Below, in pieces: positions 5,872-39,866 of a stretch of 64,000 bases of DNA. The notes below the pieces were generated by a model that was not told where the DNA came from, ran no database searches, and saw only the letters and a program-made list of their open reading frames with translations. Position numbers and translations under genes: made by a program. Source of the stretch: Eledone cirrhosa (Eukaryota); contig OZ024740.1 in assembly GCA_964016885.1 (NCBI GenBank), positions 117,490,001 to 117,554,000 of the forward strand, in the 5' to 3' direction. The number at the start of each line of letters is the position of its first letter. Position 1 is the first letter of the stretch.

Positions 5872-6071
5872 NNNNNNNNNNNNNNNNNNNNNNNNNNNNN
5901 NNNNNNNNNNNNNNNNNNNNNNNNNNNNNNNNNNNNNNNNNNNNNNNNNNNNNNNNNNNNNNNNNNNNNNNNNNNNNNNNNNNNNNNNNNNNNNNNNNNN
6001 NNNNNNNNNNNNNNNNNNNNNNNNNNNNNNNNNNNNNNNNNNNNNNNNNNNNNNNNNNNNNNNNNNNNNNN
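5872..6071. other. Assembly gap (200 N)
   Basis: Run of n. Confidence 1.
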
Positions 6072-18377: not shown

Positions 18378-18478
18378 CATATATATATACATATATATAA
18401 ACATATATATATATACATATACATATATATAAACATATATATATATACATATATATATACATATATATATATACATAT

Positions 18479-18511
<33 letters not shown>

Positions 18512-18590
18512 CATATATATATATATATATATACATATATATATACATATATATATATACATATATACATATATTTATATACATATACAT

Positions 18591-18659
<69 letters not shown>

Positions 18660-18719
18660 CATATATATATACATATATATATATATATACATATACATAT
18701 ACATACATATATATATATA

Positions 18720-19216
18720 GGGACCAGTGGACAACTGTTCAAAGGAAGAACAGAAAGCACCGAGACACTGGGAGCAAAAAACCCCAAGTAATGTGCAAGT
18801 TTTTCAAGAACGGGACATGCTGGCATGGAGAGACAGGGATGGGATGCAGATTCGCCCACCCTAGGTCTCAAACGAACTATGTCCATCATACTCGCGCAAC
18901 ATGCCCCAGCCAAAGCCGAAATAAGCCGCTCCTGAATTATGCTGATGTGGTGCGTGCCGCACCAACAAGGAGAAGGCACGCACATGCCGACGAGATACAG
19001 ATGGCAGCAGCAGATCAGAAAATTTTTTTAGTGATGGCAGAGAAGATTGTGAGACAGCTGACCTGGCTGCATCGTCTCCAGAGCCAGGGTCATCCACACC
19101 AGCACTCGAGACCACCACAGTTAAGGGACCCAGAGTGGCCGCCGCTATCACCAGACCAGGTGTCATACCGACAGCCATTACTGGCACACCAAAAGTCACA
19201 CCAGTGCTGCTGCTGA
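18720..19216 (+). pseudogene. LINE family 1 ORF1 C-terminal part with CCCH zinc finger
   Basis: [23 protein letters not shown]; the ORF ends HQCCC-stop. Confidence 0.75.
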
Positions 19217-22167
19217 ATGTCAGGGGCCTGGTGAAACTCAGTAACATGAGTAACATTTCCTACCTGGGAGACTTAGCCATAAGCAATCAAGCACTATGCA
19301 TGGCACTAACCGAAACGCACCTGACAAGCAGTATAGCAGATGCAGAAATACATATACCGAAATATACTGTATTTCGTTCGGTCAGGAAGGAGAGAACTCA
19401 TGGTGGGGTTGCTCTGTATATCCGTGAAGATGTCACACCAATTGTACTGTTGACACATTCAAACTCAGTCTGTGACACACTGATAATACATATGAAGCAA
19501 CTACAGACAGTAATATGTGTCACATATCGGCCGCCCGATGCCCCCAGTCATGAGGGTAAATTTGAGGATAGCCTAAGTAGGATAGAAGAGGTCCTTGACA
19601 AACTGGACCAGGGTCTCAACATCCTACTGCTGGGAGACTTCAACCTACCAAAGGTCAAATGGCCTGAGGGCCATCTCCTCCCTGGAATGACGTCAATAGA
19701 ACAGAGACAGACGGAATCCCTGCTGGCCCTCACACACAGGCTGTTCATGGAGCAAGCAATACTCCTCCCAACAAGAGACGAAAATGTCCTGGACCTCTGT
19801 TTTACAAACAACGAAGTGCTCATCCACAATGTAAAGGTGACACCAACAATTCTCTCGGATCATAACTTAGTAGAGCTAATGATATGTGGTCCAAGAGAAC
19901 CAACAGAGACAAAACCACCAAGAAGCTCCGGGACGCTATCCAGCCTTAACTTCTACAAGCTAACTGGAAAAAGATTAAGAGTGAAATCCGGAAGCAAACA
20001 TGGAGTGAAAACACCGCCACACAAGACACTAACACACACTTTCAACACTTCATGACAACGATACACACTATATGCAAAAAGTTTGTCCCGGAGAAAGAGG
20101 CAAACAGACACAAAAATCTTATTCCCAGAGATAGGAAAATCATTATGAGACGTAGAACTAAACTCTCAAACCAGTTGAATAGTCAACAAAACAAAAACAA
20201 GAAGGAATCCTATTTGAAACGTGCACTACTTGACACCGAGATTGCACTCAAATTTAACATGAGAATGAGAGGGCAAAGAAAGAGAACAGGGCCATAGAAA
20301 ACATTAAAACAAACCCTAAGGCCTTCTTTAAATTTGCAAAAGAAACTGCCTCAGTACACTGCAAGATTGGGCCACTCTTCCACACGGACGGTTCATTAAC
20401 CGAAAACCCCCAAGAGATATGTGAAATACTGAACGAACAGTACAAAAGTGTGTTCACATGTCCACTGAGGCACATGCAAATAACGAAGCCAGAGGAGTTC
20501 TTTGATGCCACAACACTACATCAAGAAATGGCAACCATCAACCACATAGACATAACGGAGGAGGATGTGGTGTACGCCATTGATGAAATTAGAACAGACT
20601 CGGCTGCTGGACCTGATGGATTCCCAGCAGTTCTCTTAAAAATATGTAAGCGGGCCTTAGCAACTCCACTGAAGATGCTCTTCAGAAGCTCCTTGGCTAG
20701 CGGTGTACTACCCGGGGAGCTGAAAGAAGGTACAATATGCCCTATCCATAAAGGAGGTAGTAGAACGGAGGCCAAGAACTATAGGCCAGTCTCCCTGACG
20801 TCGCATATCAGTAAGGTCATGGAGCGAGTCGTCAGAAAGAAACTAATCACTTTCCTCGAAGAAAATGACCGCCTGACTAGCACGCAACATGGCTTCCGCC
20901 CAGGAAGAAGCTGCCTTACACAGCTGCTACATCACTACGACTGGGTACTGAGACAACTACTAGACAGCTCACATGTAGACGTGATAAATCGTGACTTTGC
21001 GAAGGCCTTTGACAAGGTCGACAACGGAATGATATGTCACAAACTGCACGGACTCGGCATAACTGGAAAAGTAGGTGAGTGGCTGCAATACTTCCTAAAG
21101 GACAGAAGCCAGGCAGTCACCGCAAATGGGGCCCTCTCAAAGGCAACACCAATAACAAGTGGGGTGCCCCAGGGGACAGTCCTGGGACCACTACTGTTTT
21201 TGGTGGCTCTCTCGGACATGCCCTCTGTGGTGCATGCAACAACTTCCCTCACTAGCTATGCTGATGACACTAAGGTAGCACAGGCAATCAAAAACCCGGC
21301 TGACGCTGCCCTTTTACAGCAGGATCTGGATGCCATATACAGATGGGCGGAAGAAAACAACATGCAGTTTAATGCTGGCAAATTCCAAGCCCTACAATAC
21401 AAACCTGCAAACACAAATATAGTGGAACACAGCTACACAGGACCAGGAGAGACCGATATCCCCGTGTCAAAATCGATACGAGACCTGGGCATAGACATGA
21501 GCGATGATGCATCTTTTTCTTCACACATCATGAAAGGGGCGACAACGTGCAGATGACTCGCTGGCTGGATCTTGAGGACTTTCCGGACAAGAGATCGAGA
21601 CACCATGTTGACACTGTGGAGGACTTTTGTCCTAAGCCGCCTGGACTACTGCTCCCAGTTGTGGTCACCCTATAGTGTCAAACTAACCACGGAGCTTGAG
21701 GCAATCCAGCGAAGCTACACCAAGAGGATTGCCAAGATGAGGTAGACAAGCTACTGGGAGAGGCTGAAGGAACTGAACCTCTACTCCTTGGAGCGAAGAC
21801 GGGAGAGATACGCAGTGATCTACATGTGGAAAATCCTGGAGGGACTAGCACCAAACTTTGGCATTGGGAGCTGGACCAACCGTCGAACAGGACGTCACTG
21901 TGTGGTGCCAAAGGTCCCGTCTTCCACATCTAGAATAAGGAGCATGTATTGCAATAGCCTGGGATTCAAGGGCCTCAACTCTTCAACAGGCTGCCGAGGC
22001 ATCTGAGAGAGTTGCATGACGTGGAGGTGGATGTCTTTAAGAAACATCTCGACACCCTGTTATCCAGGTTCCCGGATGAGCCCAAAGCAAGACACGAGGG
22101 AAACCTAAGGGCAGCAGCAACAAACTCCCTCTTACAACAGTGGCCAACGTATACAGGCTGGAGATAA
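19024..22167 (+). pseudogene. LINE family 1 ORF2 (APE-RT) with frameshifts and stops
   Basis: Split over ORFs 19135-20055, 20052-20297, 20450-21556 and 21788-22006, with internal stops near 21554 and 21743. Confidence 0.9.
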
Positions 22168-22248
22168 AATGTGTAGCAACAAGGGCGGTGCCCCAGCATG
22201 GCATCAGATGGATGGCTGAAACAGGTAAAAGAGTAAAAGAGTAATATA

Positions 22249-22282
<34 letters not shown>

Positions 22283-22289
22283 CATATAC

Positions 22290-22338
<49 letters not shown>

Positions 22339-22350
22339 CATATAAATATA

Positions 22351-22388
<38 letters not shown>

Positions 22389-22400
22389 CATATAAATATA

Positions 22401-22432
<32 letters not shown>

Positions 22433-22469
22433 CATATATATATACATATATATATATACATATATATAC

Positions 22470-22590
<121 letters not shown>

Positions 22591-22625
22591 CATATATATA
22601 AATATACATATATATAAATATATAC

Positions 22626-22770
<145 letters not shown>

Positions 22771-22807
22771 CATATATATATACATATATATATACATATA
22801 TATAAAC

Positions 22808-22858
<51 letters not shown>

Positions 22859-22907
22859 CATATATATATACATATATATATACATATATATAAACATATA
22901 TATATAC

Positions 22908-22938
<31 letters not shown>

Positions 22939-22969
22939 CATATATATATATACATATATATATATAGAC

Positions 22970-23034
<65 letters not shown>

Positions 23035-23088
23035 CATATATACATATATACATATATATATATATACACATATATATATATATATACA

Positions 23089-23126
23089 TACACCCAAGGC
23101 TTGGGCCCCGTGCTATCCGTCCCATT

Positions 23127-23191
<65 letters not shown>

Positions 23192-23194
23192 TAC

Positions 23195-23225
<31 letters not shown>

Positions 23226-23605
23226 CACACATATATATATATATATACATACACCCAAGGCTTGGGCCCGTGCTATCCGTCCCATTCAAAAATCTAAATC
23301 GCAACTCATAACAACAATACGGCACAATTTTTTCACCTCAATCGGCCCTGCTCTCTTCAACATCACACCAGGACACGTCAAAACAGAAACTGACCACACA
23401 AAATTCAAGAAGTCTTTGGACAAATTCCTCCAAGTAATCCCGGACAAACCACCCACACCCGGATATGTCTCCGCAAACAGTAATTCTCTTCTCGAATGGG
23501 CCATGGTGCCAAAATCCTGAATTGAAAGACTTCGCCAGGTGGTGCTATTAAGTTAGACATGGCCTGGGCCAATACTGGCCAAAACATTTCAAAGTTATTC
23601 AAAGT

Positions 23606-25234: not shown

Positions 25235-26615
25235 ACATATATATATATTTACTTATTTATATACATTTTCACATATATATACATACTTATGGACGTTTTT
25301 AGACACATTCATTATCGCATATTTGTACCTATTCTCATCAGCATATCTTTTCATTATTAGTATGGTAATTTAAGGTTATTAATATATGTTGAGAAGAGAT
25401 TGTTTTTATATTTTTCTAACTAGATTAAGGTTTATATAGTTGGGGGATGTCCCTCTTTTATGTAATATTCGGCTTGTAGTGGGAAAAAAGGGTTTTAGTT
25501 CTGTGACGGCAGAATAATGTTCGTTCAATTCTGTTATTCAGCAGTTTCTTCTTGTGTGTGATTATGTAATAAATCTCAAGATTACACAATTTGCAGAAAT
25601 TTTGGCTCCTGGAAAAGCTTCGGGTTTTAGCTAATTTTTCCCATTTTAGGGTAAACTTTTGATCGCTATCCCTGAGCGTCCAAGCTTTTTCTGCTAGAGT
25701 TGTTACATTTCTTTGGCTCTGGTGTTTTATTGAGTAAGAATGCCTATACAATCGAGATTTAAACGATGTTGCCGTTGATCCCACGTAATACCACTCGTTG
25801 CCTCCGGATTTAATGGTACACTTATAAATAATATTTTTTTCCAGGCAGTTATTGCCGAGGGGGCAGTTGTCAGGATAGGTGCAGTTACAGTTGTGTAACT
25901 GCAATAACTGCCTGGAAAAAAATATTATTTATAAGTGTACCATTAAATCCGGAGGCAACGAGTGGTATTACGTGGGATCAACGGCAACATCGTTTAAATC
26001 TCGATTGTATAGGCATTCTTACTCAATAAAACACCAGAGCCAAAGAAATGTAACAACTCTAGCAGAAAAAGCTTGGACGCTCAGGGATAGCGATCAAAAG
26101 TTTACCCTAAAATGGGAAAAATTAGCTAAAACCCAAAGCTTTTCCAGGAGCCAAAATTTCTGCAAATTGTGTAATCTTGAGATTTATTACATAATCACAC
26201 ACAAGAAGAAACTGCTGAATAACAGAATTGAACGAACATTATTCTGCCGTCACAGAACTAAAACCCTTTTTTCCCACTACAAGCCGAATATTACATAAAA
26301 GAGGGACATCCCCCAACTATATAAACCTTAATCTAGTTAGAAAAATATAAAAACAATCTCTTCTCAACATATTTTAATAACCTTAAATTACCATACTAAT
26401 AATGAAAAGATATGCTGATAAGAATAGGTACAAATAAGCGATAATGAATGTGTCTAAAAACGTCCATAAGTATGTATATATATGTGAAAATGTATATAAA
26501 TAAGTAAATATATATATATGTTTGATGTGTATAGTTAGATGTAAGTGTATTCATGTATTAAAGTGCTTATATATATATATATATGTATATGTGTGTATAT
26601 GTATGTTTGTGTATG

Positions 26616-29904: not shown

Positions 29905-30018
29905 TTAAAGAGTAGATACAGAGTATAGAAGCATTAACAAATCCCAAACAGAAGAATATAATGTGGGGATATCATAAGGTGGGAGGAATTTAAAGTATTT
30001 TTCATGTAAGAGATCAGG

Positions 30019-30257
30019 AATAAAAAATAAAAAATAAAAAATAAAAAATAAAAAATAAAAAATAAAAAATAAAAAATAAAAAATAAAAAATAAAAAATAA
30101 AAAATAAAAAATAAAAAATAAAAAATAAAAAACGAAAAACGAAAAACAAAAAACAAAAAACAAAAAACAAAAAACAAAAAACAAAAAACAAAAAACAAAA
30201 AACAAAAAATAAAAAATAAAAAATAAAAAATAAAAAATAAAAAATAAAAAATAAAAT
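30019..30257 (+). repeat. Heptamer tandem repeat (AAAAAAT/AAAAAAC)n
   Basis: Seen directly. It is much shorter in the sister arm near 33943-33990. Confidence 0.95.
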
Positions 30258-30996
30258 CAAGCAAAAGATAGTGAATATGAGGAATATACTAATACTAATA
30301 AGGATACGGATTTAAAATGTTATCACTCACAGTTGGGTAGGGTTATATTATGACCGGCAATAATGGAAGCAATGATGTGATTGGTTAACACACAGCTACG
30401 TATGCACACACTCACATAAAAGTATACGTATAAGCATGAGCACCCGCATGCACCTACACGCAAGCACCCATATGCAATACAGAAAGTATACACTAATACA
30501 AATAACATATCAAAAACGGATGGGCACATACTCCATACTGTGACAAAATATAGCAATAACAGTAGAAACGATGACATATAACATGGAGGAGTACAATATA
30601 AAGAAATATAATAAATTATAAAAACATATAAAAATATGGGAACATAAGGACAAATAACGGAAGGAACATACATGGTAGGAAACTCATAAGGAGTACACCG
30701 TAATAGATGAGAAATAAACAATAAAGAAATAAGAATATAAAAAGTATAAAATGCATAAAATGCATGGTAAAAAAATTTTTTTTAAAGAAGTTAAGAGATA
30801 AAAATAGATAAAAACTAGATAAAAAATAGATAAAAAATAAAGTAAAATATACACCATAAAGGAAGGTGTGAATAAAGATGAGACTGGCAAAGGTATAAGT
30901 TATTAAGCTATGTGCAACAAGTGATATACGTAAAATATATAAAATATATAAAAGAAACATATATAAGGATATATATATATACACATTTATAAAAAT

Positions 30997-31423
30997 AACT
31001 GTAGAAGGGCTTCAAGCTGCCCCCTGAATGGTTTCTGCCTTACTAGAAACATAGTTTATGCGTGTGATGTGGTAACTACTGCATCCACTAAAACTTATAT
31101 TGGATCAACTTCTACCTCTTTTAAAACCAGATTCAACTCTCACCAGTGTACATTTAGACATAATAAACTTAAGAATTCTACTTCCTTGGCAGCGCACGTC
31201 CACAATTTAAAAAATGCACGAACACAGTACACCCTCGCTTGGCGGCAAGTTGCTAAATCCCATCCCTATACTCCTCATAATAGAGTATGTAACCTTTGCC
31301 TTATGGAATCCCACTCTATTATATTCGCCAAAATGCTCCCTGCTTAATAGAAAGTCAGAAATATTTTCTTCTTGCCCCCACCAGATATTAAGCTCTTTCT
31401 TTTATTTTAAGCCTATTAGCTAA
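30997..31423 (+). pseudogene. GIY-YIG endonuclease remnant of PLE family C
   Basis: ORF 31069-31347 plus a frameshifted end LLNRKSEIFSSCPH. Confidence 0.85.
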
Positions 31424-32313
31424 CACTTTCAGAATTCTCCAGTTGGGTAATCTAGTGTAATTGTCTCATATTGTTTGTTTTGTCTGTTTGTGTATGAATC
31501 TGTGTGTATATGTATGCCTGCATGGGATTATGGAATTTTGATATCGTGGGGTATATGTGAGTTGGTGTATATGTTGATAAGCACCCTTGTTCGGTACAGT
31601 GGATGTGACCCATCCATACTTGCCCAGCCACCGTGTGTGTGTTGTGCACTGGGGGGTCTATCCCAACGTGTATTGAGTTGATTTGTACCTTTATATACTC
31701 ATGAGTTGTGATGTATTACATCTATGTAAAGTGTGTACTGCCTTATAAGATTTATATTTGGCCAGCCCCTCACCTTTTATTTAAATTACTTTTGTTGACT
31801 CTGAGTAAACCAATGGGCCTGTGCCCATATTGGACGGTGATTTAGCCAGTCACTGTGGGCTGACCTGTGCCATCTCGCCGTGGGCAGTAGTTATGGAGTA
31901 CATGTATGTGTTACCCTCCTACTCTGCGGTTCACAGTTTACATGCTGATTTTGTGGTGTTTTTGCCTGGTGTTGTGTTTTTGACACAGTTGGCCTTCCGT
32001 AGATTGATGCTCTCTGTGTGTATTCTCCCAATAATAACGTCTTGGCCCTGATAACCTTCCGTATTTATTAACGGTTTGTTTATACTTGAATCCGGTGACT
32101 ACACGTGTGAATACTCATATTCTCATGGGGTTTAATTTTAAGTTTGATCGTGATTGCTCTGGTTGATTACTCCTATTGGTTGTTGTTCCTCTGTTGCTGT
32201 GAAACTACATTATCTGTGACCAGTGAAAACACCTGTTGTGGGTTTATGACTTTTGATAGCTGGGTAAGACACTTTGTGCACTATATCCGCATAAATTTTG
32301 GGTGACCGGTGTT

Positions 32314-32349
<36 letters not shown>

Positions 32350-32352
32350 GTG

Positions 32353-32399
<47 letters not shown>

Positions 32400-34106
32400 T
32401 GTCTCTGGGCTAACCCTACCTGTATTCTTGTGATGCCAGCGACATTACTCAGTGTTGTAATTTTGAGAGGTTATCGGCTCTGAAAGCTATTTACTATGCA
32501 CGTTGTTGAGTGTTAAATTTGCCACTTGTATTTTGTATTTAGTATTTTATATTAAGTGGTATGCATAATAATAACCTGCTTCACCTAACCGTATGGAACC
32601 ATCTGCTTTTGCCTGCTTTTATTCACTGATATGCACCTCAATTGTTTGCCCTTTGATGTTCGCACTGCTATATAAGAATTTGCCTGCAACCTTCCCAGCA
32701 TATGTTCCTGCTTGTGATACATCTTGTCAACCAATGATTTCTGCCTGAGTACTCAACTTTATGAATGCACATCTGCGGATTGAACTTTGAAGTACGAATT
32801 TTTGGGATTGTCTAACCTAGGATGTCTCCATTATATTGTAATAATCCACTCATCTAATGTGGACATCGCATCTGCTTATAAAGGTCTCATTCGAACACTC
32901 TATTGTTGGACTGCTGCTAATTGCAACACCTAAAATGTTCTTGTATTCCTGATATATTCCTTATATCACCATGAATCAATATTAGTGTCACCTTATAATT
33001 TCTAAATTTTCTTAAAACATTATGAGTACTTTTTATTAGTATTTAACAAAATTTTTATTTTTATTTTATTTTATTTTATTTTATTAACTCAATTTACTGA
33101 CATTATTTCCAATATTAGGAAACTAGCACCTATACTACTATTATCATTACATGCCTTCATTATCATCCATATTATCCTTATTACCTTATTTACCCCCAGT
33201 TATTTTTATAAATGTGTATATATATATATCCTTATATATATGTTTCTTTTATATATTTTATATATTTTACGTATATCACTTGTTGCACATAGCTTAATAA
33301 CTTATACCTTTGCCAGTCTCATCTTTATTCACACCTTCCTTTATGGTGTATATTTTACTTTATTTTTTATCTATTTTTTATCTAGTTTTTATCTATTTTT
33401 ATCTCTTAACTTCTTTAAAAAAATTTGTTTTACCATGCATTTTATGCATTTTATACTTTTTATATTCTTATTCCTTTATTGTTTATTTCTCATCCATTAC
33501 GGTGTACTCCTTATGAGTTTCCTACCATGTATGTTCCTTCCGTTATTTGTCCTTATGTTCCCATATTTTTATATGTTTTTATAATTTATTATATTTCTTT
33601 ATATTGTACTCCTCCATGTTATATGTCATCGTTTCTACTGTTATTGCTATATTTTGTCACAGTATGGAGTATGTGCCCATCCGTTTTTGATATGTTATTT
33701 GTATTAGTGTATACTTTCTGTATTGCATATGGGTGCTTGCGTGTAGGTGCATGCGGGTGCTCATGCTTATACGTATAATTTTATGTGAGTGTGTGCATAC
33801 GTAGCTGTGTGTTAACCAATCACATCATTGCTTCCATGATTGCCGGTCATAATATAACCCTACCCAACTGTGAGTGATAACATTTTAGATCCGTATCCTT
33901 ATTAGTATTAGTATATTCCTCATATTCACTATCTTTTGCTTGATTTTATTTTTTATTTTTTATTTTTTATCTTTTATTTTTTATCCTTTATTCCTTATCT
34001 CTTACATGAAAAATACTTTAAATTCCTCCCACCTTATGATATCCCCACATTATATTCTTCTGTTTTGGATTTGTTAATGCTTCTATACTCTGTATCTACT
34101 CTTTAA

Positions 34107-34967: not shown

Positions 34968-34996
34968 TGAAATACTTAACTAAAACACACACACAC
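34374..34996 (+). repeat. Tandem duplications in the LINE 5' UTR (~50 bp x2 and ~255 bp x2)
   Basis: AAAATTGACCGGTTAATAC... at about 34374 and 34424; CGAACTTGTGAGTAC... at about 34489 and 34748. Confidence 0.88.
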
Positions 34997-35007
34997 TCAA
35001 AACTAGA

Positions 35008-36168
35008 ATGGCTAACCAGCAAAAATCCAAACAGAACTGGTCTGATAATGAAATCGACATTCTAATAAACACATGGCATTGCCTTTCCCAAACAGAAAAT
35101 ATAGATGCTTCATCTCTGAACGACATTGCTAAACGTACAGTTCAATTTTTGAAAACTCGATCTGAACAACAGATTCAAAATAAATTAAAGCAAATCGAAA
35201 TTGCTTTTAAATTAATCAATAAACATTTGGATAAACTACGGTGTGTTTTCTCTTCGAATGCTGTCCAGCAGCAGCAACAACAACAACAGCAGCTACAACA
35301 GCAACAACAGCAACAGCAACAACAACAACAACAGCAACAACAACAGCAACAACAACAACAACAACGACAACAACAGTGTGAACCACTCCTTGATTCATCA
35401 ACAATGGCCGATCTACTAAATGAAACTATTGACCCCCCAGTGGCCTCTGTCTCACAGCATGAAACGCCACATCCTTTCTCTGGCCCAGCAGTCCAATCAT
35501 CACCACTGCCAACATCTCTGCCTACTACTACTACTACTACTACAACATTTTTGTCTACTGCTATGTCAAGGAATTTACCTTCTAATACCAGAACAAGAAC
35601 TCTCCCTCCCACAGTCCACAAAGGTCGTCAAATCCTACCCAAACCATCATCTACACCTCTCACAACACCCACACCCACATACCCACCCACTCGAAACCCC
35701 ATCATTTGCCGCTACTCTCTACGCTATAGAATATGTACGGATAGTGGCTGCAAATTCACCCATTTACCTAGGACAAAACGATCTATCCCCACAAACAGCC
35801 ACCACCATAATACATACTCTAATTTAACACCAACACAACCACCAATAACTCAAACAAGGAATCCACAAATCTGCCGTTTTTCCCTGCGAGACAGATTGTG
35901 TTTAGACCGGGATTGTCCCTTTACCCATCTCCCGGGGACCCGTCGGATAAATGAAAATAAAATTAAAAATAAAAGCAAAAACAAAAACCATAACCTACAT
36001 AAAAATAACCACTACCACAGTCACCAACAGTCTTCTAAACAGGAAACTTCTTCCTCTTTTTTAGCCATAATGAATCTGGCAAAAGAACTGGAAAAAAACA
36101 TTCGAGCTATCACCCAGCACCACCCTCCACTATCACCCCACTGCACAAACTCCCATTGCTGCCATTAA
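35008..36168 (+). CDS. LINE ORF1: Myb/SANT-like N-terminus, polyQ, Thr/Pro-rich linker, two CCCH zinc fingers
   Basis: WSDNEIDILINTW...RSEQQIQNKLK; CRYSLRYRICTDSGCKFTH; CRFSLRDRLCLDRDCPFTH. Confidence 0.85.
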   Translation: MANQQKSKQNWSDNEIDILINTWHCLSQTENIDASSLNDIAKRTVQFLKTRSEQQIQNKLKQIEIAFKLINKHLDKLRCVFSSNAVQQQQQQQQQLQQQQQQQQQQQQQQQQQQQQQQQRQQQCEPLLDSSTMADLLNETIDPPVASVSQHETPHPFSGPAVQSSPLPTSLPTTTTTTTTFLSTAMSRNLPSNTRTRTLPPTVHKGRQILPKPSSTPLTTPTPTYPPTRNPIICRYSLRYRICTDSGCKFTHLPRTKRSIPTNSHHHNTYSNLTPTQPPITQTRNPQICRFSLRDRLCLDRDCPFTHLPGTRRINENKIKNKSKNKNHNLHKNNHYHSHQQSSKQETSSSFLAIMNLAKELEKNIRAITQHHPPLSPHCTNSHCCH

Positions 36169-39100
36169 CAAACAAACAAATTAACAACACACCAAAACAA
36201 TTAAAACCATCCACTCTCGCCTCTACATTTTTGCTTAACGCCCAAGGCATCAGCCCTTCCACCAATACTCAAAAATGGAAGATCAAATTCCTGGAGGACT
36301 GGATTGATGTCCATCCAAACCACATCCCTTTCTTCGTCCTCACTGAAACCCATCTCAGTAACCTCCACTTGGAAGCCGAGGTGAAAGTGAAAAATTTCAA
36401 AGCCATCCGTGCTGATCGCGCTGGCAGAAGAAAGGGCGGAACTGCCATTTATGTCCATAATTCTTTCTCAACAGAGGCTATGAACATATTCACTAATGGA
36501 TACTGTGAGGCAGTCACTGTATTCAGTCAAACCAACAACCTATTAGTAGTTGGGCTCTATAGGCCACCCCAAACGCCTGTACCATGCTTCAAGGAATGCC
36601 TCAACAGCATAAAGTGTTTCATCCAAGAGTGTCACCCTGACAACATCTTAATGATGGGGGACTTCAACCTCCCCGGAGTTGACTGGTCCACAAACACCCT
36701 GCCACCAGGTTCTTCTGCCTCAACCTCTGACAGGGAAGCTGTGGAATCGCTTCTTGACTTCATGGATGATTTCTTCCTATCCCAACTAGTGCTCGAACCA
36801 ACGAGGTGCCACAAAAACGTCCTAGACTTAATTTTCAGCAATCACACTGACAATATCCACAATATTGCAGTGGAGAAAACTCTACTCTCTGATCATGACA
36901 TGGTTCTCTGTGATCTGAGTTTCCACCGTCCAATATACAAACCCAATGTCATTTCTCCTGTCCATCCGTTTGACGCTATGGATTTCCACAATGCAAACTG
37001 GGAAGCGATCAGTCATGATCTTGCACATGTCGACTGGTCCTTCACGCACACTCATACACCCACTAACATCAAAAAGTCCTGGCAGACATTTGTGGACACT
37101 GTTACAAACATATGTGCTAAACACACCCCATTAAGAACTATAAACAAATCTAAGAGCAGAATCCCTAGAAATAGAAAAACACTCATCAGAAAAATTAAGA
37201 GAACGAACAAAAAAATCAACAAGCTGAAATACTGTCAGCAGCAACACATCAACTTGACTGCCATTTCATCACTAGAGATTAAAAAACATAACCTCCAAAA
37301 CAACATAATGTCCCTCATCAACAATCAGAGAAGAGCTGAAGAGGCCTGGGCCATTGAGAAGATCAAACTCAATCCCAAAGTGTTCTTTTCATTTGCAAAA
37401 AAACACAAAATCACTGGCTCTACTGTTGGCCCTCTAATTGATGAAAATGGCACTCTTCAAGACAATGCTAAAACCATGGGTGAGATACTGCAGAAACAAT
37501 ACTGCTCTGTTTTCAGCAATCCTGATATGGCCGATCTGGGCTGTATCGGCGATGTTACTCCCCATTACACCTTATCGGACATAACGTTTGGCGCCCCTGA
37601 TGTCTTGGCGGCAATAAAGGAAATCAAGCATAATTCAGCAGTAGGTCCCGATAGGTTCCCTGCTTGTGTCTTGAAGGCGTGTCAACACCAACTTGCTTCT
37701 CCTCTTGCCAATCTGTGGCGGAACTCACTGGATGCTGGATATGTGCCAGAAAACCTTCTATCCCAGTCTGTTGTCCCAGTTTTCAAAAAGGGAAACAAAT
37801 CCCTTGCCGTGAATTACCGTCCAATCTCACTCACCTCTCATATCATTAAGGTATTTGAGCGAGTGGTGAGATCGCGAATGACCCACTTCCTTGAGAGTAA
37901 CAATATGCTGAACTCCAACCAGCATGGATTCCGTAATGGAAGGGATTGCCTGACGCAACTACTGCATCACTTTGATGACATTTTGAGAGCCTTGGGAGAG
38001 GGTTCCAACACTGATGTTATCTACCTTGATTTCAGCAAGGCCTTTGACAGGGTTGATCATAACATTCTACTGAGAAAGCTGTCCAATATTGGTGTCACTG
38101 GAAAGCTGCTGCAGTGGATCAAGAGCTTCCTGTCAAACAGAACCCAACATGTTGTAGTTGAGGGAGTCAAATCAAGCCCAGCCAAAGTCAGTAGTGGAGT
38201 CCCACAAGGCACTGTGTTGGGCCCACTTCTCTTCATCATCTATATTAATGACATCACTGACATCATCAAACACAGCAACATTAAAATTTTCGCTGATGAT
38301 TCCAAGCTCCAAAAGGTCATCAATGGCGTGGATGACCGGATAAGCCTTCAGTCAGACCTACTGGCTGTTACCCAATGGGCAGAAAAGAACAACATGTTAC
38401 TGAACGAAGACAAATTCGAACTGATCCACTTTGGAAAAGAGGATGCTCTGAAACTCCCGTACTCCCTTCCCTCCGGGGAAACTCTCGTGGCATCTAACAA
38501 CATCAGAGACTTGGGAGTAACCGTGGACAGCAACATAAGCTGGACCACGCATATAAGCAGCAAAGTTGACATGGCCCGCAGAATGTGTTCCTGGATCCTC
38601 AGAACCTTCCAGTCGAGAGATTCCCGCACCATTATCCTTCTCTTCTCTACTTTCGCCCGACCACACCTTGAATACTGTTGTCCACTGTGGTCTCCCCACA
38701 CGAAACAAAGTATCATGAAACTTGAAGCTCCTCAAAGGGCAATCACGAAAAAGATAGATGGCATGTCAGACCTTGACTACTGGGGTCGATTGGAAAACCT
38801 GAAACTTTACTCACTCCAACGTCGCCGTGAGCGTTATATTATCTGCATGATGTGGAAAATGTTCCATCATCACTGCCCAAATGATGTTGGCATCGCCTTC
38901 AAGATACACCCAAGGCTTGGGCCCCGTGCTATCCGTCCCATTCAAAAATCTAAATCGCAACTCATAACAACAATACGGCACAATTATTTCACCTCAATCG
39001 GCCCTGCTCTCTTCAACATCACACCAGGACACGTCAAAACAGAAACTGACCACACAAAATTCAAGAAGTCTTTGGACAAATTCCTCCAAGTAATCCCGGA

Positions 39101-39176
39101 CAAACCACCCACACCCGGATATGTCTCCGCAAACAGTAATTCTCTTCTCGAATGGGCCATGGTGCCCAAATCCTGA
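36057..39176 (+). CDS. LINE ORF2: APE endonuclease plus reverse transcriptase; start placed at the predicted frameshift site
   Basis: [58 protein letters not shown]. The frame is open from 36039. Confidence 0.93.
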
Positions 39177-39290
39177 ATTGAAAGACTTCGCCAGGTGGTG
39201 CTATTAAGTTAGACATGGCCTGGGCCAATACTGGCCAAAACATTTCAAAGTTATTCAAAGTTATATATACATATATATATATATACATAC

Positions 39291-39321
<31 letters not shown>

Positions 39322-39322
39322 C

Positions 39323-39375
<53 letters not shown>

Positions 39376-39866
39376 CATATACATATATATATATACATAT
39401 ATATATATACATATATATACATACATATATATACATATATATATATACATATACATATATATATATACATATATATATACATATACATATATACATATAT
39501 ATATACATATACATATATATATATACATATACATATACATATATATATATACATATATATATATACATATATACATATATATATATACATATATATATAC
39601 ATATATACATACATATATACATATATACATACATATATACATATATATATACATATATATATACATATATACATATATACATATATATATACATATATAT
39701 ATACATATATACATATATATATACATATATACATATATATATACATATATATATACATATATATATACATATATATATACATATATATATACATATATAT
39801 ATACATATATATATACATATATATATACATATATATATATATATACATATATATATACATATATAC

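Follow-up and report, generated by a model that had tools for sequence, protein, structure and literature searches.

A candidate −1 ribosomal frameshift heptamer between the two reading frames of CCCH-finger LINEs in Eledone cirrhosa

LINE copies of families A and B

We studied a stretch of 64,000 nucleotides (nt) from Eledone cirrhosa (GenBank assembly GCA_964016885.1, contig OZ024740.1, positions 117,490,001 to 117,554,000 of the forward strand). The whole stretch is referred to as the window, and its coordinates are counted from its first letter. It contains copies of two families of long interspersed nuclear elements (LINEs), further denoted A and B, both on the + strand. In these elements open reading frame 2 (ORF2) lies in the −1 frame relative to ORF1 and overlaps its end, and the overlap contains the heptamer T_TTT_TTA in the ORF1 phase. 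A first-pass annotation of this DNA, made by a model from the letters, proposed the heptamer of family B as evidence for a clade-wide frameshift mechanism.

The copy of family B (18721-22245) is truncated at the 5'-end, its ORF2 frame is broken three times, and (TA)n/(TATACA)n microsatellite lies on both flanks. The ORF1 remnant (18722-19216) is open from the truncation point, has an internal Met at 18791 and ends with the stop TGA at 19214-19216; it encodes one CCCH-type finger with the spacing C-x7-C-x8-C-x3-H (18794-18859), for which the match to zf-CCCH (PF00642) is below the Pfam cut-off (E 0.097). The 141-amino-acid (aa) ORF1 of the first-pass annotation proved to be no more than this remnant. 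Full-length copies continue upstream of the position equivalent to 18721, and in one of them (L170) ORF1 is 320 aa long, with a Myb/SANT-like N-terminus resembling that of family A.

The heptamer occupies 19024-19030, in the X_XXY_YYZ phase of ORF1 (codons AAA ATT TTT TTA GTG), and is the proposed −1 shift site. As noticed before, the −1 frame is open from there into the endonuclease. It opens at 18946, 78 nt 5' of the heptamer, and extends to 20055, the first frame break of this copy; the apurinic-type endonuclease domain (19195-19864, Pfam PF03372 and PF14529) is matched in that frame, and its translation places the first ORF2 Met after the NVRGL motif, again in agreement with the earlier description. 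The stretch 19031-19213 is dual-coding, with the ORF1 tail (a helix-like motif and the ending ...SHQCCC) over the linker of the −1 frame, for which about 53 residues are predicted to be disordered. The reverse transcriptase domain (20744-21398, Pfam RVT_1, E 2.5e-28) is in a shifted frame in the window copy.

The heptamer is found at the identical offset and in the same phase in 28 of 28 family B copies, and its 17-nt context is kept in all 30 sampled loci. While the codon ATT and the phase were read correctly in the window copy, the peptide I-F-L is not typical of the family: Ile is encoded in a minority of copies (4 of 28, including this one), and the remaining 24 read AAT TTT TTA (N-F-L). 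The majority codon AAT adds a tandem A_AAU_UUU just before T_TTT_TTA; at position 19023, A accounts for nearly all depth in the contigs of public runs. Comparison with the same contigs shows single-base length differences in the window copy near 19958, 20252 and 21972. Of the 30 sampled loci, 20 have a −1 frame that runs uninterrupted up to the locus end, and the longest intact −1 ORFs of the family are 1076 aa. The 40 scored of 901 genome candidates are 97-100% identical to the family B query. Family B is young, and its window copy is dead.

The copy of family A (34984-39265) has both frames open. Its ORF1 (35008-36168) encodes two C-x8-C-x4-C-x3-H fingers and a region that resembles Myb/SANT at a score under the Pfam cut-off. 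An almost pure glutamine tract of some 45 residues (a CAA/CAG repeat, 35270-35370) separates this region from the fingers. ORF2 (36039-39176) is in the −1 frame and encodes 1045 aa. T_TTT_TTA is located at 36057-36063 in the ORF1 phase (TCT TTT TTA), and the −1 frame opens 18 nt earlier. Family A has a second in-phase heptamer, A_AAA_AAC, at 36093-36099. It is lacking in the related family A', which reads GAG AAA AAC there; the ORF2 of A' is 69% identical to that of A, and TCT TTT TTA is kept in five of seven A' copies.

Families A and B are distant from each other: their endonucleases share 32% identity, their reverse transcriptases 42%, and the two ORF1s are hardly alignable. The first-pass annotation stated that they share little other sequence in this region. 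At the DNA level this is so, the best local alignment of the junctions scoring 10 against a shuffle mean of 10.2. At the protein level the ORF1 tails do share a pattern, (S/N)-F-L-(A/V)-x-M...A-x-E, and a C-terminal C-C-(H/C)-stop. The latter is common to the very divergent ORF1s of A, A' and B (36154-36168 in A and 19205-19216 in B), and the bases of this Cys cluster read Leu-Leu in the ORF2 frame.

Related families in the same genome

Further families were found by searches of the genome itself with the Pfam endonuclease models and with the protein of a relative. Family D has an ORF1 of 453 aa with a PHD-like region and three CCCH-type fingers; its match to zf-C3H1 is below the Pfam cut-off (E 0.029), and no ORF1 of any family has a Pfam match above it. 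The finger spacing C-x8-C-x4-C-x3-H occurs in A, D and the contig relative L139 described below, and C-x7-C-x8-C-x3-H in B and D. Family D carries AGT TTT TTA in phase, 6 nt after the opening of the −1 frame, within an overlap of 223 nt, and has no ORF2-frame ATG ahead of the endonuclease. Among 26 loci, the heptamer is kept in all 20 copies that hold the site, and six are without the region. Thus, the in-phase T_TTT_TTA is present in A, A', B and D, and the preceding codons (TCT, TCT, AAT and AGT, respectively) always end with T.

In families C and C' ORF1 ends with GGA AAC TAA, that is, G_GGA_AAC plus the stop (seven of eight copies), and ORF2 is again in the −1 frame. A hairpin of about 18 bp is predicted in family C 35 nt after G_GGA_AAC TAA, over the start of the endonuclease (L048, positions 2061-2190, − strand), with the minimum free energy of −33.6 kcal/mol, the z-score of −4.66 and none of 200 shuffles folding as well. 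It is too distant for a classical frameshift stimulator. The Tx1-type families have their own ORF2 ATG, the Met being 8-9 residues before the catalytic Asn, and no in-phase heptamer was found in them, even with a −1 overlap of 157 nt.

Relatives on contigs from other collections

The metagenome scan yielded 28 loci, of which 20 have the expected junction; loci other than L093, L097, L101, L102, L103, L105, L107, L108 and L109 are too fragmentary to read. L139 and L140, on contigs filed under bacterial metagenome-assembled genomes, represent a LINE with three CCCH-type fingers and ORF2 in the −1 frame. The F-L at the helix start is absent from this element; some 50 codons 5' of that point it has an in-phase A_AAA_AAC, and the −1 frame opens 21 nt before this heptamer. 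L097 and L105, in which ORF1 is of the PHD plus RRM-like type, also have an in-phase A_AAA_AAC, and L101 has an in-phase A_AAU_UUU within a 46-nt overlap. In the protein database, the ORF1 of family B retrieved one relative (P0001, 41% identity), which has K-S-F-L at the site, and the ORF1 of family A retrieved none. No relative was found among viral contigs.

The tree of 16 endonuclease-reverse transcriptase sequences joins A, A', B, D and L139 in one clade with the support of 100/100. Its basal split separates (A, A') from (B, D, L139) with the support of 95/94 and path lengths of 1.3-1.9 changes per residue. T_TTT_TTA is present on both sides of this split, and L139 is nested in the second group. 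The clade, further referred to as the CCCH clade, is apart from the Tx1-type elements and is kin to the contig relatives with PHD plus RRM-like ORF1s (L097), in a tree that includes no named CR1 references; the PHD plus RRM-like type of ORF1 is listed for CR1 in the accessible part of a survey (PMC4120745). The layout is that of an upstream ORF1 followed by an ORF2 with the apurinic-type endonuclease (APE) and then the reverse transcriptase (Pfam PF03372, PF14529 and PF00078). In the CCCH clade the heptamer sits 36-72 codons before the ORF1 stop, which leaves 109-217 nt of overlap after the site.

The −1 frame and the start of the endonuclease

Ahead of the heptamer, the −1 frame of the ORF1s has the usual density of stops, 124 over 1747 codons (0.071 per codon). 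Not a single one occurs between the heptamer and the ORF1 stop, a distance of 36 codons in A, 63 in B, 64 in L139 and 76 in L097, and the chance of such stop-free stretches is 0.07, 0.010, 0.009 and 0.004, respectively. In family D about 72 codons between the same points are also devoid of −1 stops. The last upstream −1 stop is located only 3-78 nt before the heptamer. Because of this change in stop density, we conclude that protection of the −1 frame sets in with the heptamer or shortly upstream of it, rather than with the ORF1 stop. The change of the −1 frame near the heptamer is the strongest signal in our data.

The first strand of the family B endonuclease (VTPVLLLN) is encoded at 19195-19218, with the Asn codon at 19216-19218, and the ORF1 stop overlaps its Leu-Asn codons. 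Counted from the heptamer, this catalytic Asn is residue 65, and it is invariant in 13 sequences. An AlphaFold2 model of family B was built from a 13-row alignment, with residues counted in the same way (mean pLDDT 76.5). Residues 58-65 form the first strand in this model, and residues 1-53 have pLDDT below 50. The endonuclease fold of B is thus predicted to start upstream of the ORF1 stop.

Codon-level tests

Among 21,811 background LINE codons there are two cases of in-phase TTTTTTA, one being the site of family A itself. In-phase heptamers of efficient kinds are more common, 78 per 21,811 LINE ORF codons (0.0036 per codon), and one such heptamer in a 90-codon overlap is by itself unremarkable. 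Given the peptide x-F-L, the probability of NNT TTT TTA equals 0.0091 for B, 0.0081 for A and about 0.0077 for D. Under the codon-shuffle null, the probability of at least one heptamer in each of six lineages was 0.18, 0.11, 0.21, 0.13, 0.13 and 0.025. In seven overlaps, heptamer patterns occur nine times in phase and 0 and 2 times in the other two phases.

Proposed frameshift

As the best reading of these sequences, we propose that T_TTT_TTA is probably a −1 ribosomal frameshift site yielding an ORF1-ORF2 fusion, and we assign to this a probability of roughly 0.7. Most ribosomes would read ORF1 through to its stop, producing the protein with the CCCH fingers. A minor fraction would move back by one base with UUU and UUA in the P and A sites, where both transfer RNAs (tRNAs) would be able to re-pair on UUU UUU. 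After the shift, translation would pass through some 55-60 codons of linker, probably disordered, into the endonuclease and the reverse transcriptase, an arrangement as in retroviral Gag-Pol. A stimulatory stem-loop or pseudoknot is usual at frameshift sites and not obligatory for low-level shifting. Since no stimulatory RNA structure was found here, the shift would depend on the heptamer alone and would probably be rare, which would still suit an enzyme needed in small amounts.

The idea of clade-wide retention beyond chance is supported within the CCCH clade, where four families keep the heptamer and the −1 frame is stop-free from the heptamer onward in every lineage.

Several observations weigh against the proposed frameshift. 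The z-scores of local folding after the heptamer are +0.68 for the B copy and +0.23 for the A copy of the window, +0.15 for A', −0.80 for D, −0.32 for L139 and −0.20 for the majority sequence of B; in L097 the folding is likewise not above that of shuffles. No stem-loop 5-9 nt downstream was found by folding, a model that leaves pseudoknots outside. Long-range pairing of the 45 nt after the heptamer with the remainder of the element, examined in A and B, yields best duplexes of −23.8 and −34.9 kcal/mol, which do not surpass those of shuffled queries (means −24.6 and −36.1). The ORF1 frame is more constrained than the ORF2 frame in the overlap, as seven of ten differences between A and A' fall on ORF1 third positions (a hand count on the alignment). 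The heptamer itself encodes the start of the conserved tail peptide x-F-L, and the Cys-Cys codons before the ORF1 stop read (T/G)TG CTG in the ORF2 frame, which are near-cognate starts. When the peptide is kept and synonymous codons are resampled, the probability of some heptamer is 0.96 for A, 0.70 for L139, 0.26 for L101, 0.16 for B, 0.084 for L097 and 0.036 for C. Further, the lineages were picked and the tests designed after the pattern had been seen. As for the relatives, L102 and L109, short single contigs, have the −1 arrangement and no heptamer, and in L093, L103, L107 and L108 ORF2 is in the +1 frame. Finally, the earlier claim that no ATG precedes the endonuclease holds in part: in A, A', B, D, C and L101 the ORF2 frame lacks an ATG ahead of the catalytic Asn, whereas one is present downstream of the heptamer in L139 and in the more distant L097 and L105.

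Three of the relatives with ORF2 in the +1 frame have an overlap that contains CCC TTT (C/T)G as ORF1 codons (L103, positions 1780-1800; L108, 1965-1990; L107, 1790-1810). L103 and L108 are akin, and L107 has a different ORF1 and is located elsewhere on the tree. CCC_UUU could act in these elements as a +1 shift site, with the P-site CCC slipping to CCU. A broader reading would hold that the whole animal LINE clade, and probably many CR1-like LINEs with the −1 arrangement, produce ORF2 only as a fusion via a bare heptamer that needs no RNA stimulator, a Gag-Pol strategy within non-LTR elements, with replacement heptamers as in L139 and with +1 sisters maybe using CCC_UUU. We offer this generalization tentatively and consider it somewhat doubtful as a whole.

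Alternative explanations

Instead of a frameshift, ORF2 translation might restart at a near-cognate GTG, CTG or TTG just upstream of the ORF1 stop, the heptamer serving for peptide coding only. The codons TGC TGC before the stop are indeed kept in A, A' and B and can be deduced for P0001 from its protein, and the ORF2 frame reads TTG CTG or GTG CTG CTG CTG there. Moreover, in B and L139 ORF1 stops where the endonuclease begins, the strong hairpin with the z-score of −4.66 follows the stop of family C, and SART1 uses coupled stop-start translation, according to the accessible text of PMC3708506. However, reinitiation needs no stop-free −1 frame, yet A, B, D, L139 and L097 keep 36-76 codons free of −1 stops ahead of the ORF1 stop. 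There is no ATG across this stop, and the one that follows TGA in B belongs to the ORF1 frame. Reinitiation at the stop in B would also remove most of the first strand of the endonuclease. On the whole, we regard this mechanism as unlikely.

The slippery codons and the long overlap may also be a by-product of selection on the (S/N)-F-L peptide, arising by coincidence or from composition. This would agree with the conservation of the tail peptide, with the stronger constraint on the ORF1 frame between A and A', and with the codon-level results, as in-phase heptamers are no rarity among LINE ORFs (0.0036 per codon) and the resampling of family A yields one with the probability of 0.96. On the other hand, the disfavoured TTT and TTA with the preceding NNT, each time a choice with the probability of about 0.008 per family, are kept in three deeply separated lineages, and L139, which lacks the peptide, has another heptamer. 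Nor does selection on the peptide account for the phase enrichment (9 vs 2) and for the opening of the −1 frame near the heptamer in every lineage. We find this explanation improbable.

Splicing would provide a different route, with TTTTTTAG as a 3' splice acceptor (a pyrimidine tract plus AG) and an upstream donor joining a short first exon to the ORF2 frame. TTTTTTAG is common to all four families, family A having CTTCTTCCTCTTTTTTAG, and A contains one weak donor in the right phase, ACG/GTGTGT at 35241 with 7 of 9 consensus matches. In contrast, no donor with at least 6 of 9 matches is present inside the ORF1 of family B, with just two candidates upstream of Met 18791, to which no reading phase was assigned (the upstream ORF1 of full-length copies being unscanned), and the heptamers of L139, L097, L101 and C are not acceptor-like. 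We reject splicing for B within the scanned region, find it weak for A, and regard it as very unlikely overall. The contigs of four public runs show a LINE-like rise of depth from 5' to 3' and are DNA-like, thus being silent on splicing or expression; no joint at the heptamer was found in them.

If RNA polymerase or reverse transcriptase slipped on the T-run, some transcripts would gain a base that brings ORF2 in frame. Such slippage has in its favor the run of 6-7 T after 4-5 A, but we regard it as highly improbable, given that it would be indifferent to codon phase whereas the patterns are nine in phase against two out, that G_GGA_AAC and A_AAU_UUU are poor slippage runs, and that no T-run length variant at the level of at least 10% is seen in the DNA-like contigs of the four runs.

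Comparison with known systems

The gag-pol site of the HIV-1 type consists of U_UUU_UUA and a downstream stem-loop. The junction studied here resembles it in the identical heptamer and its phase, in the upstream ORF encoding a nucleic-acid-binding zinc-finger protein, and in the downstream −1 ORF encoding a polymerase and lacking a start codon, so that a fusion protein is expected. It differs in that these elements are non-LTR (long terminal repeat) retrotransposons with no protease and with no stem-loop found by folding after the heptamer, and in its long overlap, which extends 109-217 nt past the site and in which the conserved ORF1 tail is encoded as well.

Among APE-type non-LTR elements, a −1 frameshift is said to be required for ORF2 in Dictyostelium TRE5-A and TRE3-A, according to the available part of PMC5911963. 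Our families share with these the APE-reverse transcriptase layout of ORF2. Unlike them, TRE5-A and TRE3-A are amoebozoan, tRNA-gene-targeting and have oligo(A) tails; this comparison is made by description, and no heptamer is named in that part of the source. The consulted portion of a frameshifting review names only HeT-A and TART among non-LTR elements (PMC5009743).

For SART1 of Bombyx, UAAUG stop-start coupling is described in PMC3708506, which calls the ORF2 translation mechanism "not clear" for LINEs in general. In human L1 the translation of ORF2 is unconventional. The likeness to our families is the bicistronic LINE RNA, the translation of ORF2 in SART1 and L1 being dependent on that of ORF1. 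The difference from both is that A, A', B and D have no ORF2-frame ATG at the ORF1 stop or between it and the endonuclease, and that their ORF2 frame is open far upstream of this stop.

In the openly searchable literature (that is, outside subscription journals, Repbase and Dfam), we found neither a slippery heptamer at a CR1-like ORF1/ORF2 junction nor a CCCH-type LINE ORF1, and the term CCCH is absent from the accessible part of the survey of ORF1 types (PMC4120745). For Octopus vulgaris, thirteen CR1 families with recent activity have been reported in the sources consulted (which include PMC13282606 and PMC13343379). The families described here are young and abundant in the genome of E. cirrhosa.

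The finding bears on the unsettled question of ORF2 translation from bicistronic LINE RNA. If the frameshift is real, these LINEs would produce a Gag-Pol-like fusion, changing how the ORF1 and ORF2 proteins assemble on their own RNA, and they would offer a natural example in which to study stimulator-free slippage. Annotation is also concerned. Pipelines demanding a Met-started ORF2 exist, as the accessible part of PMC10294476 indicates, and pipelines of this kind would truncate or miss such ORF2s.

Other features of the window

The 3'-ends of families A and B both run directly into the (TA)n/(TATACA)n microsatellite, which is also present 5' of B, and the stretches at LINE ends are located at 18401-18720, 22245-23300 and 39266-39700. 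Two 5'-truncated 3'-ends of family A, separate from family B, lie within the microsatellite (23090-23600, + strand). The host genome, 3.0 Gb in size, is rich in TA microsatellites. Such flanks suggest either a microsatellite tail or insertion into TA repeats. The genome search with the 3'-end of family A returned no matches, very common words probably being skipped.

A motif similar to YVGSTxTSFKxRLxxH is encoded in several ORFs, at 269-1807 and 25461-25928 on the − strand and at 25879-26295 and 30967-31344 on the + strand. We see in it a likeness to the GIY-YIG nuclease end of Penelope-like elements, and two of these ORFs were without a Pfam match. The run 5872-6071 consists of 200 N, representing either an assembly gap or a withheld stretch. 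The region 30000-34000 contains long tandem arrays of the 7-mer TTTTTTA on opposite strands, with other sequence mirrored as well (30778 on the + strand vs 33422 on the − strand). It looks like a large inverted duplication, unrelated to the heptamer of the LINEs.

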